This document shows, piece by piece, positions 26,752 to 64,000 of a stretch of 64,000 bases of DNA. The number at the start of each line of letters is the position of its first letter. The stretch's first letter is position 1. A program made the translations under genes and the position numbers. The stretch comes from a virus: the IMG/VR virus record IMGVR_UViG_3300033149_003257, positions 1-64,000 of that record. One strand, given 5' to 3'. The notes beneath the pieces were generated by a model, which was given only the letters and a program-made list of their open reading frames with translations, did no database searches and was not told the origin of the DNA.

Positions 26752-29700
26752 TTAGTTTTTATTACCTCTCTTAACTCCTATAGATATTAAATAAGCATCT
26801 AATAATTTAACAGATTCTGAAACTATAGACTGTTCTTTTTGATCTTTAATATGATCTGATTCAATTATTTCTTTGATATAGTTATTTTTTAAATCAATAC
26901 AATCAGATTTAGTAGTTAAAAATTCAAATAAATTACATGGCGCATCATGTGCAATTAAACAAGCAGTTTCCATTTCACCACACCTTTGTCCGCCTCTATT
27001 TTTTCTCCCCCCTAAAGGTTGTAAAGTTTTTCTAGCATATGAACCAATTCCTCTAACTGCTAATTTCTCTTCTGCTATATGAGAAATTTTTGAGAAATAT
27101 AAATATCCAACTGCAATAGGATTTTGAACAATTGTTTGATTTATTGGATCATATATTTCTGATTCAAATTCAGTATTTGTATATTTCATAATAGATTTTA
27201 ACTGTTCTATATTAATAGATTCAAAAGGAGGTTGTATTATAGTAAGATTATTAATAAAATTTTCATCTATAATATCAGGACATTGTTCTTTAAATTGATT
27301 AGAATACCATTTATCTTTTGTACTATCAATCATTTCAATATATTTAATAATATAATCTTTTGTTTCTTTATTACTAAATTTATTTAAATTTTTTAAAGCT
27401 TCTTGTTTTAAATTATAAAAAGACATAGACAAATGTAGTTCAAATAATTGACCAATATTCATTCTAGATATTATACCAAGTGGGTTGATACATATATCAA
27501 CATGTCTACCATCTTTTAATTTTGGCATCTTTTGATGATCAATAATATTAGAAACTATACCTTTATTACCATGTCGATTTACTATTTTATCTCCTATTTG
27601 TATATCTCTAAAAAATATTCCATTTATTTCAACTCTAATTCCATTTACTTTTTCATTTTTAAATTTATATTTTCCAGAATGAGAAAACTTATTTAATCTT
27701 TTTTCTCTAATTATATTTTCTGCTCTATTTTTTGGGAATAAATCAAAAATGATATCTTTAAATTTATTTTCATCTTTAATTTGTCTTTCTGTTATATTAG
27801 TTATCCAATCTACAAATTCAGGAATATCAGTATTCCACTCATTAGCAAATACATTTACTTCTGTAATAATCATATTCTTTTTTACTTTTAATGGAATCTC
27901 TTCTTCAAATATAGAACAGAAATTTGGAACTGAAACTAATTCTTTCAAAATTGCATATGGTTTACCTATTTTAATTGTTTCAAATTTATTAGGAATTGGT
28001 TTATATATTTCTTTATCTAAACTTAATAACACTTTATTTGGAGGTATATTAAATGATAAATCTTCTATGTGTATTGATGTAAGTGATTCATCTTTCACTA
28101 ATCTATCTGAAATAATAATTCCATCTTCATAATTATATCCATAGTATGACATTACAGCACATAAAAGATTTTTTCCTAAATTTATCTTACCATTTGTTAA
28201 AAAATTACTTTCTGCTAATATATCACCTTTCTTAAATTTATCACCAACTCTTACATAAAGACTCATAAAATCCATATTTTCAACATATATATTTCTAGCT
28301 GATATATCAAAAATATCAGAAGTATTATCATTATAAGTTACAATAAGAAAATTAGTATCGATATATAACACTTCACCATCTTTTTTAGCTATTTTAATAA
28401 ATTGGGTATATTTAGTATACAAACTTTCACAACCAGATTGAATCATTGGTATATCAAAATTTTTTAACATTACTGATTGTCTCATTTGTGAAGAAGCCAT
28501 TTGTAATCTTGTTTGATCATTATGTTCTAAAAATGGAATCATAGAAATTGGTATAGAAATAGGTTCTTTTTCTAGAAATTCTTTTTTAAATCTCAAATTT
28601 TCATCTAATTTAACATTTGGAATTAAACTTTGTAATACCCCACAATTATCTCTATCTGGTGTATCTACTGGACATATTCTTCCAAACATTGTTTCAGATA
28701 TATCACGTAAATGTTTTGGAACATTCTCTCTTTTAAAACCTCCTGGACCCAGTAAACTAGTTCTAGATAATCTAGTCAATTCATCAATAGGATTTATAGA
28801 AAAATCAAATTGAACTATATCGGATACATTACAATCTGATAATATTTGACTAGAATTTATATTAAATTTTGGTTGTCTGGAAGTTCTATTTGACATACAT
28901 AAATCAAAAATTGTTTTTGAAACTCTAGTTAATATTATATATTCAAAACATCTTATTCTTTTGTTAATGAAATTAGTATCATCAAAAGGTCCATTTTCAA
29001 TTGCATTAACTAATTCATCTAGAACGTTATTTGTTTTAAAAAATCTTTTTGACGTTATATCTGTTTTCATTATTAAATCTAAAGCATATACAACATTATC
29101 ACCTTTAGTTCTAGAATCATATTTAGAATACATTCTACCAAGTTCTAAAATATAATCATCCTGTGAAAAACCTTCGGATTCCTCATAATACATTTTTAAA
29201 TCAAACAATAACTTTTCAATTAATGTATTTGGATTATTTGATATTGTAATAGATGAAAAATTATATTTATCATCTAAATAATCTGGGCCAAAATATGAAA
29301 ACATTAATAACGATAAAGGAACTTTCTTTCCTAGAAAACTAGCCATAACGAGAGGTTCTTGTATTTCAGAATCTAGTTTTCTTGTATTTTCAATAACTAA
29401 TATAGTTGCTACATTTGTTCTTAACTTAATATTTTTACCTCTAGTTACAATAGGAATATCAAATAATTGAAACTGTGGTATTTTTTTCTTTCCATTAATA
29501 ATAATATAATTATCATCAACTAATTTTGGAATATACATACTGAGATCTAACTCAAAAGTTCCTTTTTTCAATTTTATTACTAAATTTTGTTTTAACGTTT
29601 TTTGTAATTCTCCAGAAGAAAATTTATGATCTTTTATTGTGCATTCAATAATTTCAAAACCAATTTCTTCTACTGTTTTTACTATTTCTTGAATTTGTTG

Positions 29701-29781
29701 AAGAAGATTAGAATATTCTAATTTTCTAATAGTAAAAACATTATTATTTTGAATCTTAAAATTCGGATTTATAATATCCAA
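26752..29781 (-). CDS. rpoB: Multisubunit RNA polymerase beta subunit, copy 1
   Basis: GPGG, GRICPVDTPD, MRQSV, GYNYEDG, GDKIVNRHGNKG, NPLGIISRMNIGQ, QPLGGR..GGQRCGEME. Confidence 0.95.
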   Translation of the reverse strand: MDIINPNFKIQNNNVFTIRKLEYSNLLQQIQEIVKTVEEIGFEIIECTIKDHKFSSGELQKTLKQNLVIKLKKGTFELDLSMYIPKLVDDNYIIINGKKKIPQFQLFDIPIVTRGKNIKLRTNVATILVIENTRKLDSEIQEPLVMASFLGKKVPLSLLMFSYFGPDYLDDKYNFSSITISNNPNTLIEKLLFDLKMYYEESEGFSQDDYILELGRMYSKYDSRTKGDNVVYALDLIMKTDITSKRFFKTNNVLDELVNAIENGPFDDTNFINKRIRCFEYIILTRVSKTIFDLCMSNRTSRQPKFNINSSQILSDCNVSDIVQFDFSINPIDELTRLSRTSLLGPGGFKRENVPKHLRDISETMFGRICPVDTPDRDNCGVLQSLIPNVKLDENLRFKKEFLEKEPISIPISMIPFLEHNDQTRLQMASSQMRQSVMLKNFDIPMIQSGCESLYTKYTQFIKIAKKDGEVLYIDTNFLIVTYNDNTSDIFDISARNIYVENMDFMSLYVRVGDKFKKGDILAESNFLTNGKINLGKNLLCAVMSYYGYNYEDGIIISDRLVKDESLTSIHIEDLSFNIPPNKVLLSLDKEIYKPIPNKFETIKIGKPYAILKELVSVPNFCSIFEEEIPLKVKKNMIITEVNVFANEWNTDIPEFVDWITNITERQIKDENKFKDIIFDLFPKNRAENIIREKRLNKFSHSGKYKFKNEKVNGIRVEINGIFFRDIQIGDKIVNRHGNKGIVSNIIDHQKMPKLKDGRHVDICINPLGIISRMNIGQLFELHLSMSFYNLKQEALKNLNKFSNKETKDYIIKYIEMIDSTKDKWYSNQFKEQCPDIIDENFINNLTIIQPPFESINIEQLKSIMKYTNTEFESEIYDPINQTIVQNPIAVGYLYFSKISHIAEEKLAVRGIGSYARKTLQPLGGRKNRGGQRCGEMETACLIAHDAPCNLFEFLTTKSDCIDLKNNYIKEIIESDHIKDQKEQSIVSESVKLLDAYLISIGVKRGNKN

Positions 29782-29792
29782 AATATAAACTC

Positions 29793-32498
29793 CTATATTC
29801 TTTCCCCTCTTAATATTTTGTCCATAATACCTTTGTAAAAACCAGAATTAAAAATGCCATTTATAATATGTTTTTTAGGATTTGAAAATGCTAAACCAAG
29901 TAACCAACTTTCAAAAGATGGAACTGATTGTATACTATAATAATCAGGTTCTATTGTTTCTCTATTTTCTAGTAATCTCCATTTTCTAAATTCTTTCCAC
30001 ATTAACTGAGCTACAACACATTCAAAATGAACATGATGTATATTTCCTTCTATATTATAAACTTCAAATAATTCATCAACTATATCTTTATAATTTTTTC
30101 CTTTAAATTTATGTAATAATTTACTAACTATAGATAAATCTCCAATAATATCCATTTGTTTCATTACATTTTTCTTATCACTTTTATTTGTAATTGCGGA
30201 ACCTGAAGTGTGAAATGTACGTAATACTAATTGTGTATTATGTTCTCCTAATGATTGTGCAGCAATAACTCCAATAAATTTACTATCAATAAATTTATAC
30301 AAATCACCATAACATTTATGACATATATTTTCACTTTTACAAAATATGGGACTTCTTAAATAAATAGTTTTTCCAATAATTTCTCGATAATTATTTTCAT
30401 CTATAATTTTTAATATACTATCTTCTAAATGATATCTATACATAAGCATTTTAGCTTTCTTTTCATTATTTACAAAAACTTGTAAATAATCTTTTGTTCC
30501 ACAATCATCAAAAGTTAAAGAAATTTGTAAATTAGCACAACTAAATATTAATTTTCTAGATAAATATCCAGAGGTTCCAGTATTTAATGCAACATCTAAT
30601 AACCCTTTTCTACAACCAAATGTAGACATAAAAAATTCTTTCTCATCTAACCCATCTATTAAACAATTTTTAATGGGAGTAGATAAAATTTCACCATCAA
30701 AATTCGAAACAAATCCTCTTGTTAAAGTTATTTGTCTAATTTGATCCCAATTTCCTCTAGCACCAGATTTTATCATATCGGAATAATGAAAATTATCTTT
30801 TAGAAAATTCAAAGTATCATCACTTAAAACGTTTTGTAATTGCTCTCCAACATCTTTACAATTATAAATATTATTTTGAACTTCTTTATAATTTGGAATT
30901 ACACATTGATTCAGAGATAAAGTAGTACCAAAGAGTGTTGTATATTTAAAACCTTCTTTTTTAATTTTATCTAAAACTTGAGATGTTTCAATAGAATTAT
31001 ACTTTGTTTTTATATCATTTAAAATAAAACTTAAAATTCTCTTATCTACTGGATAATCTATTAGATCATAATCTTCTGGTAAACATTCATTAAATATTTT
31101 TCTAGATTCTGTAATTTCTTTTCCTTTATAAAAAGCTTTATCTTGAAGTGAGTCCAATTTATTGGAAGTTAAAATATGAATTCCAAAAATAATATCTTGA
31201 TTTGGTAATGGTACTAAACTATTATTAGATGGACTATTTAAATTTTTGCTCATTAAAAATTTATCTTTAATTTCCTGTTTAGATTCTTCTGTTATTGGAA
31301 TATAAACAGCCATTTGGTCTCCATCGAAATCAGCATTAAAGCCTCTGCAAGATAATGGATGTATTTTAATTACATTTTCAAGAGATACTTTAATTTTAAA
31401 TCCAATCATACCTAATCTATGTAAAGATGGTTGTCGATTTAAAATACATACTTCATCAGTAACAATTTGTTCACAAATTCTAAATAAAGAGGGAATTTTA
31501 TACTCTATACAATCTTCAACAAATTCAATGGCATCGCTTAATGTTTTAAATTTTCTTAATTCAATTAATTTTTTCGAAACTTGAATTTTAAATAATTCTA
31601 AAATCATTATATAAGGTAATACACATTCATCAATATCTAGAGTAGGTTCTGGAACAATTACTGCTCTACCAGAAAAATCTATTCTTTTACCAAGTATATT
31701 TCCTCTAATTAATCCTTCCTTTTTTGATAACTTATCTAAAATATGTTTATATAATTCATTAACATCATTTTGTAATTGTTTAAAATATTGATAAAATAGT
31801 TGTTTATCTCTATTAATATCTATTATAGTATCTTTCATAATTTCTCTTTTCATTAAGATCTGCATATAAAATCTATTTATTTTATCAACTACTTGATTAT
31901 TTTTACTTACGCTTTTTGCTGCAGGTCTCAAATCAGGAGGAAGAACAATTATTTGTTGTAAAAATAATTTATCAATATTATTTTTTATTATATTCCATTC
32001 ATCATAACCAATAGATGTTAAAGTGTCTGCAAAAGTAAATACTAAATTATATATAGCATCTAGTTTTTCCCATCTTTCACAATTTTCAGGAATATTATCT
32101 GGTTTTGTAACTACTAAGAAATCTTCTCCATCTTTATATAAAATACTATGTTCATTATGAAGTAATAAATCTATTGGATTTTTTATTTGTAAACCACCTA
32201 TATCTACTAAAAGATCATAAAATAATGGATTTATTACAGGTATAGGAAGAATTATTTTAGCAAATCTTCTTCTTCTTTCATAATTACTAACAATATCTAC
32301 TCCACATTCTTTACATTTTCCACCTGAAAAAGATATACCATAATATTTTCCACATTGACAAGTATAATTTTTCAATGGACCAAAAATTTGTTCAGAAAAT
32401 AATCCCTCTGAATGAAATTTTTTCTTATCCATTATTTTAGTTGAAGTAACCTCTTTCAAATCTTTACAAAATTCATTAAAATTTAAAAGTTCTGGCAT
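29793..32498 (-). CDS. rpoC: Multisubunit RNA polymerase beta' subunit, copy 1 (compact, 901 aa)
   Basis: GLFSEQIFGP plus zinc finger, PPDLRP, LGKRIDFSGR, NRQPSLH, NADFDGDQM, SGYLSRKL, TQLVLRTFH. Confidence 0.95.
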   Translation of the reverse strand: MPELLNFNEFCKDLKEVTSTKIMDKKKFHSEGLFSEQIFGPLKNYTCQCGKYYGISFSGGKCKECGVDIVSNYERRRRFAKIILPIPVINPLFYDLLVDIGGLQIKNPIDLLLHNEHSILYKDGEDFLVVTKPDNIPENCERWEKLDAIYNLVFTFADTLTSIGYDEWNIIKNNIDKLFLQQIIVLPPDLRPAAKSVSKNNQVVDKINRFYMQILMKREIMKDTIIDINRDKQLFYQYFKQLQNDVNELYKHILDKLSKKEGLIRGNILGKRIDFSGRAVIVPEPTLDIDECVLPYIMILELFKIQVSKKLIELRKFKTLSDAIEFVEDCIEYKIPSLFRICEQIVTDEVCILNRQPSLHRLGMIGFKIKVSLENVIKIHPLSCRGFNADFDGDQMAVYIPITEESKQEIKDKFLMSKNLNSPSNNSLVPLPNQDIIFGIHILTSNKLDSLQDKAFYKGKEITESRKIFNECLPEDYDLIDYPVDKRILSFILNDIKTKYNSIETSQVLDKIKKEGFKYTTLFGTTLSLNQCVIPNYKEVQNNIYNCKDVGEQLQNVLSDDTLNFLKDNFHYSDMIKSGARGNWDQIRQITLTRGFVSNFDGEILSTPIKNCLIDGLDEKEFFMSTFGCRKGLLDVALNTGTSGYLSRKLIFSCANLQISLTFDDCGTKDYLQVFVNNEKKAKMLMYRYHLEDSILKIIDENNYREIIGKTIYLRSPIFCKSENICHKCYGDLYKFIDSKFIGVIAAQSLGEHNTQLVLRTFHTSGSAITNKSDKKNVMKQMDIIGDLSIVSKLLHKFKGKNYKDIVDELFEVYNIEGNIHHVHFECVVAQLMWKEFRKWRLLENRETIEPDYYSIQSVPSFESWLLGLAFSNPKKHIINGIFNSGFYKGIMDKILRGERI

Positions 32499-32500
32499 AT

Positions 32501-32734
32501 TTAATGCTCTCCAAATTCTTCTATAATAAAATTTGCTATTTGAATAAAATGCTCTTTTACAACTGAAGAAACCACTAAATTAATATCTGGCAACAATTCA
32601 TTAACTATTTGTTTTAATTCTTCTCTACTCAATTTCTCTTCGTAATTTTTTATTATGTTTGTAATTAATTGAATTAAAGTTTCTTCAATTGTAAGTTTAT
32701 TAGTTTCTATTTCATTATTATTTTCTTGTGACAT
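32501..32734 (-). CDS. Hypothetical small acidic helical protein
   Basis: 77-aa ORF directly upstream of beta'. Confidence 0.6.
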   Translation of the reverse strand: MSQENNNEIETNKLTIEETLIQLITNIIKNYEEKLSREELKQIVNELLPDINLVVSSVVKEHFIQIANFIIEEFGEH

Positions 32735-32740
32735 TAATTA

Positions 32741-33109
32741 CTAATCTCCTTTACTTAATTGAATAAACATTGAATTTACTTTTTTATATTTTATAGATTT
32801 CCACAAAGTATAATAACATTCATCAAAATAAAAAGTTCTCAAATTATTTTCAATTATATTTAAAACTGAATCTGTTGGTTCAACATTTAAATACTTATCA
32901 GAAAGACAATAAATATGATTATCTGGATCACAATTTGGATGATAACCATTTAATATTATCTTTTTAATTTTTTGGTGATTCGTTATAATTAAATAACCAT
33001 TTATAATATGATCTTCTGGTAAATCTAAAATAACGTATAAACTTTTTTGGTAAATTATTCGATTTGGAATAATTCTTTTATTTATAAATAAAAAATCAAT
33101 TTTATCCAC
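32741..33109 (-). CDS. Putative minimal E2-like (UBC-fold) protein
   Basis: YHPNCDPDNHIYCL resembles the E2 HPN...CL catalytic motif; adjacent to an E1-like gene. Confidence 0.45.
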   Translation of the reverse strand: MDKIDFLFINKRIIPNRIIYQKSLYVILDLPEDHIINGYLIITNHQKIKKIILNGYHPNCDPDNHIYCLSDKYLNVEPTDSVLNIIENNLRTFYFDECYYTLWKSIKYKKVNSMFIQLSKGD

Positions 33110-33114
33110 TTTTT

Positions 33115-34086
33115 TTAAGCTGCTCCAGTTTCTTCAATTATTTCAACAAAAGAACCATCATCATCTTTATGAACACTAATAACAAAATTAGAAGTCATAA
33201 ATGGAAAATTGATCATAGAAGAAATAATAGATGTAACATCAGTAGAATCTCTTATATAACATTTAGGTATTGTTTTATTAAATAAGGAATGTTCTTTCTC
33301 ACCAAGACAAATTGTTAATGGATTCTCTTTATTTAATTTTATAATTGGAATAATATGTTCTGATAAATTTACTACTTTATCTGTTTTTTCAGTTGAATTA
33401 TAAATAATATCTATTCTTTTTGATATACTACTATCAATACTTTCTTGTAATAAATTATCTAAAAAATCTAAATGAACTCGATGTATTATTTGATTATTTA
33501 TAAAATAATAGATTTGTTTACTAGCAATTATTTGAGAAGCAAATGATGATGCTTTTTGTATATCAGATTTACTCAGTTTAATTATATATCTTCCTTCATA
33601 TTGATAATTTGTTTTTACATTTTTTCTGCAATCAATAATTAGACTTTTACCTGAAATATATAATCTAATATTTATTTCTTTTGATCTATTACATACAAAA
33701 TCTCTACAATCTATAACTAAATCACAATCAGAAAAACATTTGCATTTTTCTATATATTTATTTTTAAATTTTGTTACAGTTACATCATCTGATATAATTT
33801 CTTCTAAAACATCAACTTTAAACTTACCAATATGTTCATATTTATAAATAGATGTTTTTAGATTTTTATTTTCTACAATATCATTATCTATAATAACAAT
33901 TTCTTTTACATCACTTAAAAATGATAAGTATCTACATAAAAATCCACCTAAAGATCCCAATCCAATTATTGCAATTTTTCTTATTTTATATTTAAAATTA
34001 TCATTAAAGATATTAGTATATATAACATTTAATTTTTCTTCTTTAATCAAAGGTTCCTTATCATTTTGATATCTTTCCTCTTTCAC
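33115..34086 (-). CDS. ThiF/E1-like adenylation protein, copy 2 (divergent)
   Basis: IAIIGLGSLGG, IIDNDIVENKNL, GKFKV, VIDCRD. Confidence 0.8.
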   Translation of the reverse strand: MKEERYQNDKEPLIKEEKLNVIYTNIFNDNFKYKIRKIAIIGLGSLGGFLCRYLSFLSDVKEIVIIDNDIVENKNLKTSIYKYEHIGKFKVDVLEEIISDDVTVTKFKNKYIEKCKCFSDCDLVIDCRDFVCNRSKEINIRLYISGKSLIIDCRKNVKTNYQYEGRYIIKLSKSDIQKASSFASQIIASKQIYYFINNQIIHRVHLDFLDNLLQESIDSSISKRIDIIYNSTEKTDKVVNLSEHIIPIIKLNKENPLTICLGEKEHSLFNKTIPKCYIRDSTDVTSIISSMINFPFMTSNFVISVHKDDDGSFVEIIEETGAA

Positions 34087-34096
34087 AGAGAAACTC

Positions 34097-34342
34097 CTAT
34101 TGATTACTTTCCATTATATTAAGCATTTCATCAATATTGTTCTTTAGAAAAATAAGTTCTTTTTTACTTAATCTTCCCATTTTTCCATATCCAATAGTTT
34201 CATCTTTTTTTACGTAACTTCTAGTTATTTGTAACTTAATTTCTCCTTCATCATATTTCATTAAAGACATTAATAATGATTTATTGTTTTCACCATTCAT
34301 TTCAAATAATTTTATTAAGACATCTTTTTCTGGATCCCACAT
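34097..34342 (-). CDS. PC4/YdbC-like ssDNA-binding protein
   Basis: SLMKYDEGEIKLQITR...GKMGRLSKKEL pattern. Confidence 0.45.
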   Translation of the reverse strand: MWDPEKDVLIKLFEMNGENNKSLLMSLMKYDEGEIKLQITRSYVKKDETIGYGKMGRLSKKELIFLKNNIDEMLNIMESNQ

Positions 34343-34361
34343 TTTTCCCCCTTATTAAAAT

Positions 34362-34398
34362 AAATAATCTGGAGAAAAAAATATTCTCCAGATTATTT
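34362..34398 (-). terminator. Intergenic hairpin, probable terminator
   Basis: aaataatctggaga / tctccagattattt. Confidence 0.6.
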
Positions 34399-34410
34399 TT
34401 CAAAAAATTA

Positions 34411-35037: not shown

Positions 35038-35099
35038 TTCCTCCTATCTCCACAGATAACTTAGATAGTCTATTTAAAATAAAATTATTTATTATTTTT

Positions 35100-35133: not shown

Positions 35134-35154
35134 TTTTCATTATTTAATTAATAA

Positions 35155-40042: not shown

Positions 40043-40044
40043 AA

Positions 40045-51295: not shown

Positions 51296-51752
51296 CCTGT
51301 TTTTGTTCTTGTTTAACTAAGTATAATCCCTCTTTCATACATTCTATAAAATTAGAAATATGTTTCTCTCCTTGAAATATAAAATCTTCTTCCATATCTA
51401 AATATCCAGTAAAAATTAATTTAATTGAATTTTTTAGTCTATATTTAAAATTATCAAACCAATAAATAAATGTATTATCAAATAAATATAATAACGCTTG
51501 TTTAATTTTTCTTTTTATTACATATTCTTTAAAATTATCAAACCACAAAAGATCTCTACGATCAAATTTAAAAAAAGATACTCTTTTCCAGAATTCTAAA
51601 GATAACATATTTAATTCTTTATCAAAAGAAATATCAATATAAACATCATGAGAAGGATCTCCACATGAACAACTACATCTATATAAAACAGAGTCATCAT
51701 CATATTGATCACATAACATAACACCTTGTTTAAATTTTGACTCGTTTTTCAT
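51273..51752 (-). CDS. Hypothetical protein (CxCxC..H motif)
   Basis: 159-aa ORF with RBS; YRCSCSCGDPSH. Confidence 0.6.
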   Translation of the reverse strand: MKNESKFKQGVMLCDQYDDDSVLYRCSCSCGDPSHDVYIDISFDKELNMLSLEFWKRVSFFKFDRRDLLWFDNFKEYVIKRKIKQALLYLFDNTFIYWFDNFKYRLKNSIKLIFTGYLDMEEDFIFQGEKHISNFIECMKEGLYLVKQEQKQDENEKRI

Positions 51753-53052
51753 TATTTTCTCCTAATCTAACTACAAACCCTGTTCTATCTACTTGACTAG
51801 CAGAACATCCTCTAGAAATAACCCAAATTATTTTTTTTGGAAGTAATTTTCTATTTACTGTATTTATATTTTCACAACCGCCATCAGTGAACATTAAAAC
51901 AACATCTGATTTTTTCTTTTTTGCTTCTATAAGTGCAGGTAATAATACAGTACCACCTCTTCCTTTTATATTAAATTGAATATCTTTAACTTTTTTTACT
52001 TCATAAGTTTTTTGAACTTTAGTATCACATTCAATAACAAATGTTTTACAATATCTATCATTTTCTATAATATTTTTAATACCTGATAATGCTTCTAAAA
52101 TTTCCTCTTTTGACATGCTTCCAGATGTATCTATACCAATAACAATAGAAAATGAAAAATCTCTAGTTCTTCCAGGAAATGGAGATATTACAGGTAAATC
52201 TAAATAATCTTTTAAAACAAAAGTATATGTTCTTTTTCTATTAATTTTTGTGTGAGATCTTATAAATTTACTTAATCTTGTTCCTCTTACAAGTTTTCTA
52301 ATAATCTGATAATAAGGAACTTCTGGCGGTCTTAATAAATTTTCAAGTAAATCATTAATATATGAAGGAAGATTACCTCTTTGTTTATTAAAATTTTTAG
52401 CAGCTTCTTTAGCTATAGTCGAAACATAATTATTAATTTTTCGTGATAAAGAATTTAAATCAGAAACTTGTTCAGAAATATTTTCCCATCTTGAATGATC
52501 ATCAATATTTTTTCCACTACTATTTCCTTCTCCTTTATCATCATCAAAACTTAAATTATTATAATTAACTCTCTTACATCTTTTTAATAATTCTTGATAA
52601 TAAAATTCAGAAAACTTGTTTGGTGGTAAATTATAAATATCTGGAAAACAAAGTTTATATGGTTCAGAATTCACAGTAAGAACTTTTGGTAAATCTGCTT
52701 GTGTATTTACACAACAATCTGCTGCTTTATTCCATATTCTAGATTTTACTTCTTTATTATGATTATTCATTTCATTAGCTAAGACTCTTAACAATCTACT
52801 AATATGTTTATTTAATAAATGCATTCCTTCATGTTTTAATATATAATCTATAGTAGCATCATTAGTATTCTTTACCATTTCAGGTTGATATAATAAACTA
52901 ATGCTACCATCTGGTTCAGGAGCTACTCCCATTATAGCCGGTAATCTCGGTTCTGCTTTTCTTCTAACTCTTGAAAACAAATATCCCCAGTAACTATTTT
53001 CTTTTAATATAGATTTTGCAATTAAATCTTTTAATCTTTCACCTGGTTCCAT
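51730..53052 (-). CDS. DUF2201-type metallopeptidase-vWA protein (MoxR partner)
   Basis: KHEGMH (HExxH), WNKAAD, IDTSGSMS MIDAS, GRGGT, FTDG. Confidence 0.88.
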   Translation of the reverse strand: MEPGERLKDLIAKSILKENSYWGYLFSRVRRKAEPRLPAIMGVAPEPDGSISLLYQPEMVKNTNDATIDYILKHEGMHLLNKHISRLLRVLANEMNNHNKEVKSRIWNKAADCCVNTQADLPKVLTVNSEPYKLCFPDIYNLPPNKFSEFYYQELLKRCKRVNYNNLSFDDDKGEGNSSGKNIDDHSRWENISEQVSDLNSLSRKINNYVSTIAKEAAKNFNKQRGNLPSYINDLLENLLRPPEVPYYQIIRKLVRGTRLSKFIRSHTKINRKRTYTFVLKDYLDLPVISPFPGRTRDFSFSIVIGIDTSGSMSKEEILEALSGIKNIIENDRYCKTFVIECDTKVQKTYEVKKVKDIQFNIKGRGGTVLLPALIEAKKKKSDVVLMFTDGGCENINTVNRKLLPKKIIWVISRGCSASQVDRTGFVVRLGENNEKRVKI

Positions 53053-55700: not shown

Positions 55701-55803
55701 TAAAATATTTTTTTAAATTCATCACATAATTCATTACAATTATTTTTAAACAAACAATCTTTACATGGGTTTTCCATTTTATAACTTCATCATTTTTTAA
55801 TTT

Positions 55804-56376
55804 TTATTTATTTGGAAATAAACACCAATTACTTGAATTCCGATCATTAGGTATAGTAACTAAAGAAAATTCATTATTAAACCAACATTTCATATATTTT
55901 TCTGTTAATTCACTTGAAATAAATTCCCTTACTTCTTCAAATGAAAATTCATGATCTATATTTTCAATAGTTATTGGACTTACTTTTCTTACTTTTGAAT
56001 CAGTTATTTCACCACTTATTAATTTTGGATGAGGACAATAAACAATAACTAATTTATTACCAACTAATCTGAATATTTCATTTTTATACAAAAAACAATT
56101 TAAATCTAAATCATATGTAACTTTTTTTGCATTTAATACTCTGTCTATAGAAGTATGTTGTCTGCAAAGAATTCCTTCATCCTTTTTAGATTTACAAATT
56201 TCACAATCGTCTGGAGATAATGTATATTTAGTACCACGTATTTCAAATGTTGGATCAGCAGCTCTTTGGAAATATGATAATATTCTTCTTCTGTTTAACA
56301 ATAACTTTATTACCGTAATTGGATACAAATCACAAGCTAATCTTTCAATAAATTTTTCAGTAGATTCTAATTTCAT
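55804..56376 (-). CDS. Hypothetical protein with CxxC...CxxH zinc motif
   Basis: CEICK...CRQH; AGGAGG RBS. Confidence 0.7.
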   Translation of the reverse strand: MKLESTEKFIERLACDLYPITVIKLLLNRRRILSYFQRAADPTFEIRGTKYTLSPDDCEICKSKKDEGILCRQHTSIDRVLNAKKVTYDLDLNCFLYKNEIFRLVGNKLVIVYCPHPKLISGEITDSKVRKVSPITIENIDHEFSFEEVREFISSELTEKYMKCWFNNEFSLVTIPNDRNSSNWCLFPNK

Positions 56377-56460
56377 TTAAAAAACTACCTCCTAGTTTTT
56401 TGAGTTTTTTCCAACAAAAATTTGATTTTGAAACAAAAACAACAATTAAATTTATAGAAA

Positions 56461-56605
56461 CTTCTGTCATTATTATTATTAGCAATAACTAATATTTACA
56501 TATCAATAAAAATGATTGTAGATAAAAGCTATTGCTAACAGTCATAATGACAGAAGCCTTGCGATTACCAAACTAATAATATATCAACTATATTAATAAT
56601 TGGTA
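56461..56605 (-). ncRNA. Candidate structured RNA: a 96-nt imperfect hairpin plus a second hairpin
   Basis: cttctgtcattat (56461-73) pairs perfectly with ataatgacagaag (56544-56). Inner stems ttagcaatagct/agttattgctaa with G-U pairs favour the minus strand. Confidence 0.5.
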
Positions 56606-56623
56606 TATTACTTTAAAATTTTA

Positions 56624-56788
56624 TTATTCCATATTATCATTATCATTATTATTTAGTAAATTTTTTTGTACTGGAATATTTAGAAATTTTGCTAATTTAA
56701 TTAAAAGAGAAACATTAGATTTCCTAACTGAATCTATTATTCTATTTCTTAATTTTTTAATTTGTTTTATTCTTTCTGTTTCAAACAT
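56624..56788 (-). CDS. Small basic protein; start probably 56788 (MFETER)
   Basis: GGTGGAG RBS before ATG; first gene after the candidate early promoter. Confidence 0.55.
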   Translation of the reverse strand: MFETERIKQIKKLRNRIIDSVRKSNVSLLIKLAKFLNIPVQKNLLNNNDNDNME

Positions 56789-56862
56789 AAACTCTCCACC
56801 TTTATTTTTGTTGTAAAAATCCCATAATAATTTTTTCAAAAAATAAAACAACCTTCTATTTC

Positions 56863-56883
56863 TATCAATAATTTATATATATA
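56863..56883 (-). promoter_or_regulatory. Candidate early promoter TATATATATAAATTATTGATA
   Basis: 20/21 match to 15593-15613; heads the long minus-strand replication/accessory block. Confidence 0.55.
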
Positions 56884-56889
56884 GAAAAA

Positions 56890-57144
56890 TTATTTATCCA
56901 ATAATTCTAAAGAAGCCGGTTGTTTGTAATTAGATAAATCAATCAATACATTTCCGTTTTCAAATCTATCAGCAGCTTTAATTCTCTCTTTCACTTCTAG
57001 TGGCATAGCAGTATCAGTTAGATATACATAAATACCATTCTTAAAATTAAAAACCATACCATCACTGGTTTGTTCTACTTGAACAAAATCCTTCCTATCT
57101 GAACTAATATTAATAGAACCTTTTTTTATTTTAATCAATTGCAT
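56890..57144 (-). CDS. Hypothetical protein
   Basis: 84-aa ORF overlapping the upstream gene's end. Confidence 0.6.
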   Translation of the reverse strand: MQLIKIKKGSINISSDRKDFVQVEQTSDGMVFNFKNGIYVYLTDTAMPLEVKERIKAADRFENGNVLIDLSNYKQPASLELLDK

Positions 57145-57736
57145 TAATCTTTTCCTTATTCTCAGAAATTTTTAAAACTACCAACATTCTAGATTTTTGG
57201 GAAATCCTTACAAACCATTCTAATAAATCATCTTTATTATATGTTCTCAAAAATTCTGATATCATCCAAGTATTTAAATGTGTATCTATTTGTTCTAAAA
57301 TAGCTTTTTCAATTAATACACTATTTTGTTTACAAAAACTATTAATATTAATAGATTTTAAATCTACTCCCATAAAGTTCCAAACAAATGATAAAAAATC
57401 TATATGATTGAATTCTAAAAATTCTAAATATATATATATATTATCACAATCAATTTGTTCAAAAATATTTATATTTTCCATAAATTCAAAATTATATATT
57501 TCTAAAATCTTTTCCAAAACTCTGCGACAAAATATTATTTGATCTTCTAAAATAGTTTGTTTTATATATATAATCTCATTTAAATAAATATTCTTAAATT
57601 CATCTTTACCAATATTTTCAAGGATCTCTAAATAACTATATTCACGATTTACTTCTAATATACTTTGTTGATCTTCATCATCCATCTCTAAAACATGAAA
57701 TGAATTTCCCCATAAAACTTCATTTGCTACATCCAC
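57131..57736 (-). CDS. Hypothetical acidic protein directly downstream of RNAP beta copy 2
   Basis: 201-aa ORF; GTG start with GGAG RBS. Confidence 0.6.
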   Translation of the reverse strand: MDVANEVLWGNSFHVLEMDDEDQQSILEVNREYSYLEILENIGKDEFKNIYLNEIIYIKQTILEDQIIFCRRVLEKILEIYNFEFMENINIFEQIDCDNIYIYLEFLEFNHIDFLSFVWNFMGVDLKSININSFCKQNSVLIEKAILEQIDTHLNTWMISEFLRTYNKDDLLEWFVRISQKSRMLVVLKISENKEKINAID

Positions 57737-57739
57737 AAT

Positions 57740-60700
57740 TTATCTCCCTAACATAAGTGATACAAAATAAGAATTTAATAATTCTCTAGTTGGTGATGAT
57801 TTAGATTCTCTATATTCTGCTGAACCTGTTTGAATAATATCTGAAATAATCTCATTTTTTGTAACATGATCATCACTTAATGGTCCAAAAAATTCAGATA
57901 AAATTTTTGGACAATTATAAGACACTAAAGCCCAAGTATCTTGTTCACCAACTCTTTGTCCTCCTTCTCGTCTCTTTCCAGATAATGGTTGTAAAGTTTT
58001 TTGTTTAACTGGACCAGTAGATCTAGTATGTATTTTTGAAGAAGCAAGATGTTCCATTTTTTCAATATACATATAACCAATCGGAACAACATTATAAGTT
58101 TTTGTATTAAATTCTGGAAGTTTTAAATAATAACCAGATTTTAAATTTAATATTTTCATACATTGTAAAATATCTTTATAAGATGGTGCTTTAAAAGGTG
58201 GAATAATTATTGGAACAAAACCATTATTTTTAATTTGATTAATCATTTCTTTAAATTTATTATCACTCATTTTAGAAATATTATTAGTTAAAGATGATAT
58301 AAATTTTTGTCCTTTTGATTTATCTAATGGTTTTAAAACTGAATTTAAAATATTTACTACCTTAGATTTTGTATTATTTTCTATTATTATATTTGCTAAT
58401 TTTTTTGAAATTAAACCACAATATAATTCATATATTTGACCCATATTCATTCTACCGATGACTCCGAGTGGATTTAAAATAATATCTACTGTTTCACCCC
58501 AAGGAGTTCTGGGCATCAAAGAATCTTTTTCAATTAATGAAATAATACCTTTGTTTCCATATCTATTACATAATTTATCTCCAATTTGAACTTTTAATTC
58601 TTGTTCAATTTTAAATTTTATAAGTACACCTTTTATAGAAACTCCTCTTATTGTAAACCGTTCTTTTTTCTTTCTTTCATATCTTTTATTAGTTCTTTTA
58701 ATTAAATCTTGTAATATTGGAAACTTATCTTCATTAATATTACAAAACACCTCTATATCAACAACTATTCCACCAGGACTTTTCTTTATATATTGACCAG
58801 AAGATATTTCTGAATTTTCATCTTCTAATTCTTCTATTCCAATTAATTCTTCTATTTCTCCAATTGATCTCCTTAAAAGAGGTTTTCCTTTTTCAATATG
58901 TTCTCCAATTTTACAAATATATAATAATCTATCTTCAGAAGATACAGGAGCTTCTTCTATAATACCATGTAATGAAGTCAACATATCATTAGAAACCAAT
59001 CTTTCATTTATAACAATTCCATCTTCAAAATTATATCCTTTATATGGCATAAGAGCTACTAATAAAGTTCTGCCTAAAGATATACTTCCTCCAGATACAC
59101 AAGCTCCTTCAGCAACTATTTCATTATTCTTTACAATCTGACCTTTTTTAACTTTTACTTTAAAAACACTTAATGTATCTTTTCCAGAACCAGATTTCAA
59201 ATGAAATGGTGATATATCTAGTTCATGTTTATCACCATTTTTACATATAATAATAATACTATCTTTTGTTATATTAAAAACTTTACCATTACATGGAGAT
59301 CTTTTAATAAAACTATCAGATAATACATTACTAAGAATAGACTCATAACCAGATTGTATTACCGGAGGTGATGGATTTTTTAATGGTAATGCTTGTCTTG
59401 CTTGACTACATGAAAACATAACTCTTGGACCATCATTATTTTCTATAAATGGAACCATACAAGAAGCAGATGACAACATTCCAGAATATTCATTGTCAGA
59501 AATATCTTTTGTTGTAAATAAACCTCTAGCAGATGTAATTAAAGCATCAACAGTTAAATATTGGATAATTCCAACATTACTACCTTCTGGAGTATCCAAT
59601 GGATCAATATTTCCAAAATAAGATGGATGTACATTTCTAGCTTCTAATTGTATAGCTCCCTTATCTGGGATTCCACCAATATTCTTTCCAACAGGAGAAA
59701 CTCTTGTCATAACTGATAATTCTTCAATAGGATTTGCATATTCCATATTAGAAACGATTTCAGAATTTATAAAATCTCTTAAAACTTTATCTGAAACTAA
59801 GTTAAACACTGCATTTTTATTTCCAGATAATACTTGTTCTTTATATTCTGTATAAGCAGCAAGAATTTGTTTTTGTGCTAAATTTACCAAAACTTCTGAA
59901 TTTCTTATTCTTTGATTAGATAAATCATTTCTTTTTTCTTCAAAACCAGTTACAACTTTACTGGCCATATATTTCATAATATCATCTAATTCAGTAGGTA
60001 ATTGTTTATTTACTAAAATTTGTTTAACAACCGGATCAACAATATTTTCTAAATTAGTTGATAAGAGATAAGTAGAATTTACTCTTCCAGTAATTTTTGT
60101 AATTAAACTATTAAAATACTCTTTACTTCCAAAAGGATATTGTATATTAAATTCATCCGGTTTACTTCTAGAAAAAGATTCACATAATTCAAATTTTAAA
60201 TCATTATCTACATTCTCAAAAACAACATATTCATTTTCATTTATTTTTGTAAACATCTCATCTTTTTTGGGTTTACTTTGAACAATTTTATATTTTAAAT
60301 TATATTTCTTAATTGTATTTTCAAAACCAAAACTATAACATAAAACTATAAATAATGATAATTTATATGAACCCATATATATTTCTAACCAATGATTTTT
60401 TCTGGTTCTTTTACTTTGTATATGAAATTTTGAATATGAACTTTCAAATTTCGAATCATAAGCTTTTGGAAATGTTATTGGACATAAAACTAATTGATTA
60501 ATTAAAATCTTCTTATCACCATTTAATCTAAAAACTCCAAATTTATCAATTTTAGGAACTTCAATTTCAACTTCATGTGTATTACCAAACTCATCTTTTA
60601 AAATTGTTTTTATAATAGATATATCAGATTTATCTATTTCAGTTGCTTTACTTTGTTTATCAACAATATTCATAGATACTATTTTTAATGGAATTTCTTT

Positions 60701-61831
60701 CCTTTCTAAAACTTTAAAAGAATTTTCCATATCTTTTTTCAAATTAATTTCAAAATCAATTTGTCTCTTTTGAAACAAATGTTCTGGTGATTTATCATCA
60801 ACCATTTTTGGAATATTTAATAACTCATTTATCATATTATCAGATAAAGAAATAGTTTTCTCTGGTTTTAATAATTCATCTGAATATGTATTATCAACAT
60901 TTTTTAAAGCTGTTTTAGTTTTATCTTTTGGAATCATTTTAGATAATCTATTAGATTTTTCCAAATCTCCACTAGTTTGATAAAGTATTGAAGCAACTGT
61001 TAATTTATCTATTTCTTCATCATTTAATTCATCTGAATTTATAGAATCTACTAAATCTGGTTGATTTTTTAAATAAGAAGATACTGCATTTTGAACTTTT
61101 GAAGAAGTATTCTTATTAATTACATCAGACACTTTTTTAATAACATTAGTAGATGCTTTATTAACTTCTACTTCCTCATCTTTTTCTAGATCAATTAATT
61201 TAATATTTCGAACATATTGTAATAATCTAGAAAATTGATAATTTTTATCTTTTATTAAAACTCTATATTTTGAACTATCAAGAGAGACAATATTTAATAA
61301 CATATGATCAAATAGAAAGTCATTATCTTTTAATTGCTGAACAATTGGAAATATCTTTCTATTAACAAATTGATTTAAATTTTTTGTAACATTAATAGAA
61401 TAAAATAAAACCTTTCTATAATTTTGTGGAAATTCATCTTGTATTTTTAGTAAAATATTCTTAATTAAAAATCCAGATCTTTGTCTATAATTAGTCGGTT
61501 TATAAATAGAATCTATTGCTTGTAAATAAGCTGATAAATCAAAAAATAAATTTTTATCAGAAGGAAATTTCATTGCAGTACTAAAAGCAAATAATTTATA
61601 GGATTTATATAATTTTCTAGTATCAGATAATAATCTTGTTCTCGGTATTTTTGTAATTGGAATAACAACATTTTTAACATCAATATTTCTAATTCCTAAT
61701 TTTGTATAATCATCTAATAATGTAGAATTTTCAGGAAAGAAAATAAGTAAATAAGGTCTTTCTCTATCTTGAGGAAATCTAATATTACTTACTACTCTTG
61801 TATATTGTTTTATATCATCAAATTTTAACAA
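57740..61831 (-). CDS. rpoB: Multisubunit RNA polymerase beta subunit, copy 2, with long N-terminal extension
   Basis: GNIDPLDTPEG, QARQA, GYNFEDG, GDKLCNRYGNKG, NPLGVIGRMNMGQ, QPLSGK..GGQRVGEQD. Confidence 0.95.
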   Translation of the reverse strand: MLKFDDIKQYTRVVSNIRFPQDRERPYLLIFFPENSTLLDDYTKLGIRNIDVKNVVIPITKIPRTRLLSDTRKLYKSYKLFAFSTAMKFPSDKNLFFDLSAYLQAIDSIYKPTNYRQRSGFLIKNILLKIQDEFPQNYRKVLFYSINVTKNLNQFVNRKIFPIVQQLKDNDFLFDHMLLNIVSLDSSKYRVLIKDKNYQFSRLLQYVRNIKLIDLEKDEEVEVNKASTNVIKKVSDVINKNTSSKVQNAVSSYLKNQPDLVDSINSDELNDEEIDKLTVASILYQTSGDLEKSNRLSKMIPKDKTKTALKNVDNTYSDELLKPEKTISLSDNMINELLNIPKMVDDKSPEHLFQKRQIDFEINLKKDMENSFKVLERKEIPLKIVSMNIVDKQSKATEIDKSDISIIKTILKDEFGNTHEVEIEVPKIDKFGVFRLNGDKKILINQLVLCPITFPKAYDSKFESSYSKFHIQSKRTRKNHWLEIYMGSYKLSLFIVLCYSFGFENTIKKYNLKYKIVQSKPKKDEMFTKINENEYVVFENVDNDLKFELCESFSRSKPDEFNIQYPFGSKEYFNSLITKITGRVNSTYLLSTNLENIVDPVVKQILVNKQLPTELDDIMKYMASKVVTGFEEKRNDLSNQRIRNSEVLVNLAQKQILAAYTEYKEQVLSGNKNAVFNLVSDKVLRDFINSEIVSNMEYANPIEELSVMTRVSPVGKNIGGIPDKGAIQLEARNVHPSYFGNIDPLDTPEGSNVGIIQYLTVDALITSARGLFTTKDISDNEYSGMLSSASCMVPFIENNDGPRVMFSCSQARQALPLKNPSPPVIQSGYESILSNVLSDSFIKRSPCNGKVFNITKDSIIIICKNGDKHELDISPFHLKSGSGKDTLSVFKVKVKKGQIVKNNEIVAEGACVSGGSISLGRTLLVALMPYKGYNFEDGIVINERLVSNDMLTSLHGIIEEAPVSSEDRLLYICKIGEHIEKGKPLLRRSIGEIEELIGIEELEDENSEISSGQYIKKSPGGIVVDIEVFCNINEDKFPILQDLIKRTNKRYERKKKERFTIRGVSIKGVLIKFKIEQELKVQIGDKLCNRYGNKGIISLIEKDSLMPRTPWGETVDIILNPLGVIGRMNMGQIYELYCGLISKKLANIIIENNTKSKVVNILNSVLKPLDKSKGQKFISSLTNNISKMSDNKFKEMINQIKNNGFVPIIIPPFKAPSYKDILQCMKILNLKSGYYLKLPEFNTKTYNVVPIGYMYIEKMEHLASSKIHTRSTGPVKQKTLQPLSGKRREGGQRVGEQDTWALVSYNCPKILSEFFGPLSDDHVTKNEIISDIIQTGSAEYRESKSSPTRELLNSYFVSLMLGR

Positions 61832-61842
61832 AAATTAATCTC

Positions 61843-64000
61843 CTAAAAAGTTCCAGATAAAATTCTATCTAAAATAGATGGTTCAAATTTATCTTCACTT
61901 GTTAACCCGGTTTGTATAGCTTTTCCAATATTTTCAAAAGCTAGTCCACTAACAAAACTAGAATTGAATATAACTTCTTTTATATTTATCAAAACTGGAT
62001 CCCATGTTTTTCCCAATCTTGCTGGAATATTAATATCATCTTTATTTCTTAAAACATTACTCATTAATACTTCTATATGAACAGAATCCATATCTCCTGA
62101 TGGCCATTTATTAGTTATTTTTTTAAATAAATTAGTAGTATCTTTAAACAACTCTCTTCCACCAATTAATCGTTCCATATAATTAGCTTGATCTTTTAAT
62201 TCACTAGTTTCTAATGACGTTTCTAAAATAATATCTCCTTGTTTATAATTTAAAACAATTTGTTTATTAATTTCCTCAAAATTTCTTTTTTGTATAATAA
62301 CAGAATAATCCAAAACTATATTAAATATTAAATTATCAAACTCTATTGTCGAAATTAAATTAGATACCCATATAGAATTATCTTCAATACGAATATTATT
62401 ATTCATATTATAAACATTTAAATCAAGTTTTAAAATACAATCTTTTTTACAAATTAAACCATTTTCTTCTTGTTGTATATACTCATTTAACTTATTTTCA
62501 TTTATATCTAATAAAGGATCATTTTCTAAAATATCTTTTAATAAATTTTTATCAGTTATTGAAACTGCTCCGCCAAGGTGAAACGTTCGCATGATTAGCT
62601 GGGTTCCTCGTTCCCCAATAGCCATCCCAGCAATTGTTCCAATATATGGAGATTTATGTCTTAACAAAAGTTTCCCATAACAGGTATGACATATTTTATA
62701 AGATTTACAAAATATTGGAGATCTTAATTGAATAGTTTCTCCAACTTTATGTTCTTCCGGAATAAACTCTTCTATTCTTCCTTTATTTAAAAAATATCTT
62801 CCTTTAAGTCTTTTTATTAAATCTTTATCTAATCTTACATTTAAATATTTTTTTGTTCCACAATCTTTTAAATATGGATCTGCTTCAACATTACTTAACA
62901 AATAAACAAGTTTACGAGACAAATAACCTGTAGTAGACGTATTCAATGCACGGTCAATCATTCCTTTTCTACCGCCCTGAGACATCTCAAAAAATTCTTT
63001 ATTTGTTAAACCATCAGAATATGATCCACTAATTGGATCTAAAACTTTACCAGTTGGATCTGCAATAATACCCTTTGCTATTAAAATTTGTGTTGGTTGA
63101 TCCCATCCTTTTGCTGCTCCAGATTCAACTAGATCATATAATCCAGTATTTTTTAAATGTTTTATCAATATTTGTTTAGCTTTATTAATTAATATAGATG
63201 CTTGTTCAACTGTTGCTCCATTTATTTGTTTTTTTATTTCATAAATTTCATCTGGAAGTTCTATATCATCAATTTTTATAGATGGAGCAGAAATAGTAGC
63301 AAATTTAAAACCAATCTTCTCTAATTTAGAAAAGACATCTATAGCAATATTTTCACCATACTTTTCTAGAATTGTATTAATATAACTATTTATAATTTTT
63401 TTCGTTACTGTTTTATCTATAAATTCAAAATCAGGCGGAAAAGCATTATTTAAAATTGCTTTCCCCATGGTAGTATTTTTTCCTCTAAATTTAACTGGAA
63501 TATATGGATTAGTAGCATTTTCTAAATCTTCTTCATTAACTATTATAGGAGACTTATTTATCAATACATTTTTTGTTATAATATATAAACCAACAGCCAT
63601 TTCTTTAGAAAGGTCAAATGAAACATCTGTTGAAGAAGTTCCAGTTGTTCCTTTCATCATTTTCTCTTTAGCTTCTTGTTGAGCTTCATTTGTGAGAGGA
63701 TGATAAATAGCCATAACATCACCATCGAAATCAGCATTATGTTGACCAACTTGTAATGTACATACTTGAATAGTATCGCCTTCAATTAATCTAGGATAAT
63801 ATGCTCTATAAGATTCAGCATGTAAAACTGGATCTCTTTTCGCTAATACTACTCTACCTTCCATTACTGATTCTGTAGCATCAAAAAATATTTTATACAA
63901 CTCATCTGGAATAACATCTTTATTACGAATTGCTTTAATAACTCTCTGAACACTATCAACAGATAAACTAACATTATCAAAATTTTTTATTTCATCTTCC
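61843..64000 (-). CDS. rpoC: Multisubunit RNA polymerase beta' subunit, copy 2 (5' end beyond the window)
   Basis: KRDPVLH, NADFDGDVM, TGYLSRKL, LRSPIFC..ICHTCYG, TQLIMRTFH; frame stays open to the window edge. Confidence 0.95.
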   Translation of the reverse strand, partial: EDEIKNFDNVSLSVDSVQRVIKAIRNKDVIPDELYKIFFDATESVMEGRVVLAKRDPVLHAESYRAYYPRLIEGDTIQVCTLQVGQHNADFDGDVMAIYHPLTNEAQQEAKEKMMKGTTGTSSTDVSFDLSKEMAVGLYIITKNVLINKSPIIVNEEDLENATNPYIPVKFRGKNTTMGKAILNNAFPPDFEFIDKTVTKKIINSYINTILEKYGENIAIDVFSKLEKIGFKFATISAPSIKIDDIELPDEIYEIKKQINGATVEQASILINKAKQILIKHLKNTGLYDLVESGAAKGWDQPTQILIAKGIIADPTGKVLDPISGSYSDGLTNKEFFEMSQGGRKGMIDRALNTSTTGYLSRKLVYLLSNVEADPYLKDCGTKKYLNVRLDKDLIKRLKGRYFLNKGRIEEFIPEEHKVGETIQLRSPIFCKSYKICHTCYGKLLLRHKSPYIGTIAGMAIGERGTQLIMRTFHLGGAVSITDKNLLKDILENDPLLDINENKLNEYIQQEENGLICKKDCILKLDLNVYNMNNNIRIEDNSIWVSNLISTIEFDNLIFNIVLDYSVIIQKRNFEEINKQIVLNYKQGDIILETSLETSELKDQANYMERLIGGRELFKDTTNLFKKITNKWPSGDMDSVHIEVLMSNVLRNKDDINIPARLGKTWDPVLINIKEVIFNSSFVSGLAFENIGKAIQTGLTSEDKFEPSILDRILSGTF

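Follow-up and report, generated by a model that had tools for sequence, protein, structure and literature searches.

Two divergent two-subunit RNA polymerase cores with undivided subunits in a jumbo phage of the mReC lineage

The stretch of DNA analysed here (the window, 64,000 bp) is the first 64 kb of the linear, 151,964-bp IMG/VR record IMGVR_UViG_3300033149_003257. By their motifs, two gene pairs on this record encode two catalytically intact two-subunit cores of multisubunit RNA polymerase (RNAP), referred to below as type 1 (beta'1 and beta1) and type 2 (beta'2 and beta2). The two types are ancient paralogues. On the basis of homology and promoter logic we think it rather probable that pair 2 is a virion-type enzyme and pair 1 a non-virion-type enzyme, in the sense known from phages phiKZ and AR9. 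The phage is a member of the lineage described as mReC (multi-subunit-RNAP-encoding Caudovirales; Weinheimer & Aylward 2020, Nat Commun 11:4506, PMC7481178), whose members are jumbo phages with genomes of about 300 kb and with capsid, baseplate and terminase genes of T4 type. This lineage was known before, and both pairs are present in its tables; the main text of that paper does not mention two polymerases per genome and offers no functional reading, nor was the two-enzyme point found to be taken up in the later literature searched.

All four open reading frames (ORFs) are found on the minus strand at the positions given by the original prediction, which had been made from the window alone (Table 1). 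It had left the unsplit state of beta'2 unconfirmed because the 5' end of this gene lies outside the window; the same contig shows one continuous ORF. The catalytic motif NADFDGD is exact in both beta' subunits (residue 388 in beta'1, residue 368 in beta'2), and the beta subunits carry NRHGNKG (beta1) or NRYGNKG (beta2) together with NPLG and GGQRxGE. The copies are clearly divergent, as had been predicted, with 31% identity over 825 columns for beta' and 27% over 1076 columns for beta. Rpb1 domains 2, 3 and 5 score over the Pfam cut-offs in both beta' subunits, and full-length beta'2 matches PF00623 with E 1e-32. In beta2, Rpb2 domains 6 and 3 pass the curated cut-off (E 2e-46 and 1e-10) and domain 7 falls under it (E 3e-4, 21.4 vs 32.1 bits).

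Domain set and catalytic motifs are shared with bacterial rpoB-rpoC, and beta'1 has in addition retained an N-terminal zinc ribbon of the bacterial type (CxC...CxxC, residues 47-65), which beta'2 lacks, having no cysteine in that region. In contrast to the bacterial genes, the order in both pairs is beta' then beta (beta1 starts 11 nt past the end of beta'1), the subunits are smaller, and no alpha, omega or sigma gene was found. The reversed order and compact subunits had been noted in the original prediction and hold, except for an N-terminal extension of about 350 aa on beta2, evident from the fact that beta2 aligns with beta1 from residue 351 onward only.

Phylogenetic analysis gave both types their own clades. 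The beta' tree contained 53 rows, among them 20 bacterial rows from diverse phyla, with Archaea and Eukarya left out; it was computed under LG+C20 with posterior mean site frequencies (PMSF) by a quick search, with support from the Shimodaira-Hasegawa-like approximate likelihood ratio test (SH-aLRT). Support was 100 for type 2, 81 for type 1 (99 without one long row), 100 for Bacteria and 95 for a group of phages with a fused beta-beta' ORF, and types 1 and 2 together were split from all other rows with 100. In the beta tree, type 1, type 2 and Bacteria each reached 100, and types 1 and 2 together 87. The closest bacterial beta' matches are 27-32% identical and scattered across many phyla. As each type forms a clade of its own outside monophyletic Bacteria, neither nesting in Bacteria nor a recent duplication, the two outcomes under which the original prediction was to be given up, holds; the duplication is ancient.

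The evidence that bears on function comes from comparison with phiKZ and AR9, whose genomes were searched with each of the four proteins, taking the depositors' annotation at every match. The N-terminal part of beta'2 matches the AR9 virion beta'N (gp144) with E 2.5e-27 and phiKZ gp180, annotated as a structural head protein, with 6.6e-22; it matches the AR9 non-virion beta'N at 2.4e-15 and leaves phiKZ gp55 unmatched. For beta'1 the preference is reversed, with the AR9 non-virion beta'N at E 1.1e-19 and gp55 at 1.7e-5, gp180 at 4.3e-4 and the AR9 virion beta'N unmatched. Similarly, beta2 matches the phiKZ head protein gp178 across 613 residues (E 1.1e-17) and the AR9 virion betaN (9.8e-12), and beta1 matches the AR9 non-virion betaN (E 2.8e-8). 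In a tree of the beta' N-terminal part, type 2 groups with gp180 and the AR9 virion beta'N (SH-aLRT 99) and type 1 with gp55 and the AR9 non-virion beta'N (SH-aLRT 92); the four long phiKZ/AR9 branches were not drawn together. The zinc ribbon is present in Bacteria, type 1 and gp55, and absent from type 2, gp180 and the AR9 virion beta'N.

Like phiKZ and AR9, the phage has two paralogous beta/beta'-type enzymes in one genome and no recognised alpha, omega or canonical sigma factor. It differs from them in several respects. Their large subunits are each split in 2-3 genes, where here there are four single ORFs, and are so divergent that PF00623 misses phiKZ and scores AR9 with E 5e-4; the same profile gives 1e-32 and 6e-27 for the two beta' copies of this phage. 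The capsid is of phiKZ type in phiKZ and AR9 and of gp23 type in the lineage studied here, and a search for tubulin (PF00091) in this record and four relatives gave no match.

A second line of evidence is a promoter-like word. The word TAGAACAAA(T/A)TA is the sole one besides the ribosome-binding site that is enriched upstream of genes; for the looser pattern [AT]AGAACA[AT]A, 14 of 49 copies are intergenic, with 4.8 expected (p 2e-4), and 10 of these 14 are located 28-68 nt upstream of a start codon. Identical copies precede the terminase large subunit gene and the type-2 operon (Table 1). Nine of 11 relatives have the word 370-570 nt ahead of beta'2, and it precedes the type-2 operon of a 248-kb relative (G006) too; no copy occurs within 1 kb of beta'1 in 10 relatives. 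In the genome under study, type 1 lies behind putative E1 and E2 genes with no TAGAACAAA word nearby. Since PHROG and Pfam annotation of the word-led genes of this genome was mostly blank, G006 was used instead: 25 of its 58 copies fall in the intergenic 8.8% of its sequence, where they precede the genes for the gp23-type capsid protein, terminase and a virion structural protein as well as the type-2 operon.

A 21-bp sequence considered as an early promoter, TTAATTAATATATATAAGAAT, was rejected: with <=3 mismatches allowed it occurs once in the window and about 6 times in 152 kb, and its copies bear no consistent relation to genes. A search for repeats revealed no additional intergenic family, and scans for sigma-70-type promoters showed no enrichment over shuffled sequences (168 vs 167, and 103 vs 109). 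A tRNA-Pro gene (TGG; window 23019-23095, minus strand) is located downstream of a TAGAACAAATTA copy at 23273-23284.

Of the reading offered by the original prediction, a two-polymerase programme built from single-chain subunits with copy 1 as the non-virion and copy 2 as the virion enzyme, the core is supported indirectly, by the reciprocal similarity to phiKZ and AR9 subunits, the beta' N-terminal tree (support of 99) and the shared promoter-like word. The argument from gene context fails. Copy 1 had been regarded as non-virion because it was placed among non-structural genes, and this basis for the roles was rejected, as both pairs reside within one long minus-strand block of mainly non-structural genes, with replication and repair genes surrounding each of them.

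We favour a scheme where the phage would run its own transcription with two two-subunit RNAP cores. Type 1, as the undivided counterpart of the non-virion RNAP, would be made early and would read TAGAACAAA promoters, including that of the type-2 operon. Type 2, as the undivided counterpart of the phiKZ/AR9 virion RNAP, would be transcribed from a TAGAACAAA-type promoter, as would the terminase and capsid genes, so being made together with the particle proteins; it would be packaged in the particle and start the next infection. Gene integrity, catalytic motifs, paralogy, the conservation of both pairs among relatives, the position of the word and the pattern of similarity to phiKZ/AR9 subunits are observed directly; packaging, timing and the pairing of enzyme and promoter are inferred. 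If the enzyme that reads TAGAACAAA makes the capsid and terminase messages as well, the simplest arrangement would have type 1 as the reader of the word and type 2 as one of its products.

Several observations weigh against this scheme. Two of them concern the promoter-like word: TAGAACAAA heads not only structural genes but also non-structural ones (a QueC-like gene, a glycosyltransferase, an HNH endonuclease and an exonuclease operon), and in 3 of 10 relatives E1, which heads the type-1 unit, is preceded by AAGAACA variants. The word may thus mark a general rather than a late phage promoter. This would suit an alternative in which both enzymes are made after infection and neither is packaged, with the host RNAP or one phage enzyme starting the programme, and in which the two polymerases divide middle and late gene classes between them, or template states such as 7-deazaguanine-modified and unmodified DNA. 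The shared location of both pairs in a mainly non-structural block fits such an arrangement, the FolE2 and QueC-like genes of the phage point to modified DNA, and complete relatives with a single RNAP exist (the fused-ORF genomes of 160-190 kb, YerA41 and Rhizobium phages), so that a phage RNAP alone does not imply packaging. We nevertheless consider it unlikely, because sigma-70-like sites show no enrichment, neither a sigma nor a host-takeover factor was recognised, and type 2 specifically resembles phiKZ head proteins and AR9 virion subunits.

The remaining points concern the relationship to phiKZ and AR9. In their C-terminal halves, beta' and beta show about the same similarity to virion as to non-virion subunits. 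Branches leading to the phiKZ/AR9 rows are very long, and the trees are quick searches with SH-aLRT support only. The AR9 non-virion beta'N is likewise without a zinc ribbon. Finally, the approximately unbiased (AU) test keeps a single phiKZ/AR9 beta'N clade, equivalent to an independent duplication, at a log-likelihood difference of 13.4 (p 0.2), and phiKZ-type sequences have been reported to be unstable in trees (PMC7481178). The duplication into types 1 and 2 could thus be convergent with that in phiKZ and AR9, the similarities resulting from parallel loss or long-branch effects, in which case the two enzymes could share out their tasks the other way round or in some other manner. This seems rather improbable to us, as the two long virion and the two long non-virion branches went to separate clades, and as the reciprocal E-values of the N-terminal parts lie 5 to >20 orders of magnitude apart for both subunits and both reference phages. 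Given the AU result, orthology of type 2 with the virion and of type 1 with the non-virion subunits is no more than the best-supported reading of the sequence comparisons. With slightly less than even confidence, we tentatively regard the two types as slowly evolving orthologues of the two phiKZ/AR9 enzymes that have stayed undivided.

An artefact, whether bacterial rpoBC joined in by chimeric assembly or a tandem duplication of recent date in which one copy decays, finds no support and is already refuted by the results: GC content is even along the window (0.21-0.31); the nearest bacterial sequences are remote, and Bacteria form a monophyletic group that excludes both types; at least 12 independent contigs show the layout; and each copy, at 27-31% identity to the other, is matched by hundreds of orthologues that are 53-57% identical and keep the catalytic residues invariant (for beta'2, hundreds of metagenome orthologues of about 1000 aa).

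The recurrence of the layout became apparent in IMG/VR. A search with the single beta'1 sequence gave no match there, and an alignment-based scan confirmed 554 related loci, some contigs having two. Among 28 long IMG/VR records searched, 12 possess two beta' genes, typically of about 900 and 1005 aa, on one strand and 30-40 kb apart with the longer gene upstream; the two-beta' records checked for beta contain two beta genes as well, of about 1000 aa and about 1360-1400 aa. In some relatives beta'2 is interrupted near residue 750-785 (Table 1). These interrupted forms would be the intermediates expected if the split phiKZ/AR9 genes arose by insertion of mobile elements, an idea quoted in a 2020 review (PMC7598289) that called the origin of the split jumbo-phage RNAPs a mystery.

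If the proposed orthology is true, the strategy of using two polymerases would predate the divergence of mReC phages with gp23 capsids from phages with phiKZ-type capsids, or would have moved between them as a module, and insertion of mobile elements into whole genes would have produced the fragmented genes of phiKZ and AR9. A virion-type enzyme consisting of two whole polypeptides that can be aligned with confidence to cellular RNAP would simplify reconstitution and structural work (at the time of the review just cited, no virion RNAP had been purified) and would provide a rooted comparison for the origin of the five-piece phiKZ enzyme. A second enzyme together with one conserved promoter-like word would also make a complete phage-run transcription programme readable in a very abundant uncultured group. 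The value of the finding is limited by the prior presence of the lineage and both pairs in a published dataset, and by functional steps that are inferred from sequence.

The original prediction had taken it as established that phiKZ/AR9-type phages have virion and non-virion RNAPs whose large subunits are each split. As an account of phage RNAPs this is out of date, since phages with T4-type capsids and undivided beta and beta' genes have been on record since 2020 under the name mReC. The study in question found such genes in Caudovirales from IMG/VR that have a PF07068 capsid and a PF03237 terminase. Its Supplementary Dataset 2 contains two size classes, beta of about 1360 with beta' of about 1005 and beta of about 1000-1020 with beta' of about 900, and tags contigs with both pairs as _a/_b, including a 149,482-bp contig identical to one of our relatives (G010) and others of 308 kb and 277 kb (PMC7481178). 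The phage analysed here agrees with mReC in its unsplit beta and beta' of >=800 aa with NADxDGD, in its deep branch outside Bacteria, in its PF03237 terminase and in its IMG/VR origin. The gp23-type major capsid protein (PF07068) was found in relatives G004, G005 and G006 (E 1e-31 to 1e-34); it was not detected in the 152-kb record, which covers about 49% of the genome. Unlike the contigs of that study, the 151,964-bp contig is absent from its tables and adds a new member to a published lineage; the two gene pairs themselves were already in the published dataset. The moraphage lineage (PMC12619734) is unrelated and has no RNAP.

Other phages with RNAP of the multisubunit type have one enzyme. 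Yersinia phage YerA41 shares the order beta' then beta and differs in having a single enzyme with a split beta' (557 + 518 aa); it is placed outside types 1 and 2, as is the single enzyme of the Rhizobium Kleczkowskaviridae (RHph_TM30). In the INPHARED phage collection, cultured isolates with related genes have one enzyme each, and no close cultured relative was found. A separate group of uncultured phages of 120-190 kb (loci L055-L084, from IMG/VR records of 100-193 kb, several of them complete) carries one fused beta-beta' ORF, 2008-2391 aa long, in which NADFDGD is located near residue 1350-1720; this group too is placed outside types 1 and 2, beside Bacteria.

Table 1. Features of the two polymerase loci, promoter-like words and interrupted beta'2 genes of relatives. 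Positions refer to the window unless marked as contig.
Feature	Position	Strand	Description
beta'1	29793..32498	-	901 aa, unsplit; Pfam Rpb1 domains 2/5/3/4, E 2e-35 to 3e-5
beta1	26752..29781	-	1009 aa, unsplit; Pfam Rpb2 domains 6/3/7, E 7e-53 to 4e-11
Small ORF (about 77 aa)	32501..32734	-	translation of the 242-nt gap; stop 2 nt before the beta'1 ATG
Putative E2-like (122 aa) and putative E1/ThiF-like (323 aa) genes	32741..34086	-	directly upstream of beta'1
Terminator-like hairpin	34362..34398	-	15 pairs and T-run; upstream of type-1 unit
FolE2, GTP cyclohydrolase	25858..26733	-	291 aa; PF02649, E 7.5e-63; directly after beta1, in 8 relatives also
beta'2	61843..64839 (window part 61843..64000)	-	998 aa, single uninterrupted ORF; Pfam Rpb1 domains 5/2/3
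beta2	57740..61831	-	1363 aa, unsplit; Pfam Rpb2 domains 6/3/7
beta2 N-terminal extension	60752..61831	-	about 350 aa; alignment offset vs beta1
201-aa and 84-aa ORFs	56890..57736	-	directly after beta2; candidate accessory subunits
Promoter-like word TAGAACAAATTA	15566..15577	-	37 nt upstream of terminase large subunit gene
Same word, identical, TATAGAACAAATTATAAA	contig 65331-65342	-	43 nt upstream of the 147-aa ORF heading the type-2 operon
Strong terminator hairpin	contig 65355-65392		just ahead of the TATAGAACAAATTATAAA copy of the type-2 operon
beta'2 of L012 and L014			ORFs of 779 + 230 aa flanking an ORF of about 300 aa
beta'2 of L015			in-frame insert of about 390 aa, intein-like
beta'2 of L049			in three pieces
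beta'2 of L040 (357-kb genome)			770-aa ORF, C-terminal part distant

The type-1 polymerase genes belong to a unit with the order 81-aa ORF, E1, E2, small ORF, beta'1, beta1 and FolE2, which from E1 onward is also the type-1 module of the relatives. By tblastn, the putative E1 is found in 9 and the putative E2 in 6 of 10 type-1 loci with their position kept, and several loci have a small ORF of 64-91 aa in the equivalent place. The conservation of E1 and E2 suggests a functional or regulatory link of a ubiquitin-like system to the type-1 polymerase. The gene following beta1 was considered as a further RNAP subunit and rejected, since it encodes the GTP cyclohydrolase FolE2. A QueC-like gene occurs at contig 146851-147417 on the plus strand; together, the FolE2 and QueC-like genes hint at 7-deazaguanine modification of the DNA, which could be a reason for the phage to have polymerases of its own.

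In the type-2 module, the order across relatives is 483-aa ORF, 147-aa ORF, beta'2, beta2 and ORFs of 201, 84, 190 and 306 aa, the 147-aa ORF heading the operon and abutting beta'2. The 201-aa and 84-aa ORFs are found by tblastn at the same position in 6 and 7 type-2 loci, respectively, and gave no match in Pfam, PHROG or Atlas; for the 147-aa ORF, Atlas likewise gave no match, and its model has a predicted local distance difference test (pLDDT) score of 70. Homologues of the N-terminal extension of beta2 are all type-2 beta subunits. Its AlphaFold model (pLDDT 86) predicts an alpha/beta domain (residues 11-210) and a helical domain (215-315), for which Foldseek returned template modelling (TM) scores of 0.2-0.26 at most. 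The best results of a wide fold search (VIA), to P-loop kinase and SRP-GTPase (signal recognition particle GTPase) folds, stayed in the noise range (Z <= 7.3), a Walker A motif is missing, and a comparison by hhalign with the first 760 aa of phiKZ gp178 gave no match; none of these searches yielded a convincing structural relative.

The lack of a recognisable alpha or sigma gene, remarked on in the original prediction, was borne out by profile searches. The record, for which absence is not proven at about 49% completeness, has no match to PF01000 and PF01193 (alpha), PF01192 (omega) or PF04542 (Sigma70_r2), and its best score for Sigma70_r4 (PF04545) is 14.8 bits, under the cut-off. With PF01000 run on this record only, the profiles PF04542, PF04545, PF01193 and PF01192 were also blank in 4-5 larger relatives; the control genomes all scored. 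A 252-aa ORF (148219-148977) was rejected as a sigma factor, as its Sigma70_r4 match is sub-threshold and it shows only a weak winged-helix-turn-helix match. The 147-aa ORF gave no match to AR9 gp148 ('sigma factor, helix-turn-helix (HTH)') by hhalign and none to any PDB chain in a profile search. Ahead of the type-2 operon, all 11 of 11 type-2 loci have the 483-aa ORF (contig 67806-69257 in this phage), for which hhalign gave a weak collinear match to AR9 gp226 (E 0.017, 26% over 145 columns, probability 2.7%), and HMMER no match to the gp68/gp226-type subunit.

With a CheckV completeness of 49% at 151,964 bp, the genome should measure about 300 kb; its GC content is 24.8%. The T4-like morphogenesis genes of the original prediction are confirmed in the window by T4_baseplate, gp25, a gp6-like wedge protein and a T4-type terminase (PF03237), and in relatives by the capsid protein described above. 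A gene for a gp5-like baseplate hub or tail lysozyme (contig 73062-74210, minus strand) is located amid genes for replication and homing endonucleases, upstream of the type-2 module; structural genes are therefore dispersed. Free-standing HNH/homing-endonuclease genes are numerous (window 13046-13918 and 51730-53052; contig 70631-71809, 74222-75244 and 76569-77543), with one directly after the terminase gene. In the tail region, a 1036-aa protein (window 8894-12004, minus strand) has a C-terminal domain like VgrG3 of type VI secretion systems (T6SS; PF21277, E 3.7e-68). A 12-nt unit is repeated in about 18-26 tandem copies at window 15837-16148 on the plus strand, within a 365-aa ORF with a DUF6745 domain (15659-16756). 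Lastly, an actin-family protein of 353 aa is encoded at contig 105370-106431 on the plus strand (L006:9370-10431), with a full-length match to Pfam Volactin (E 3.9e-66).

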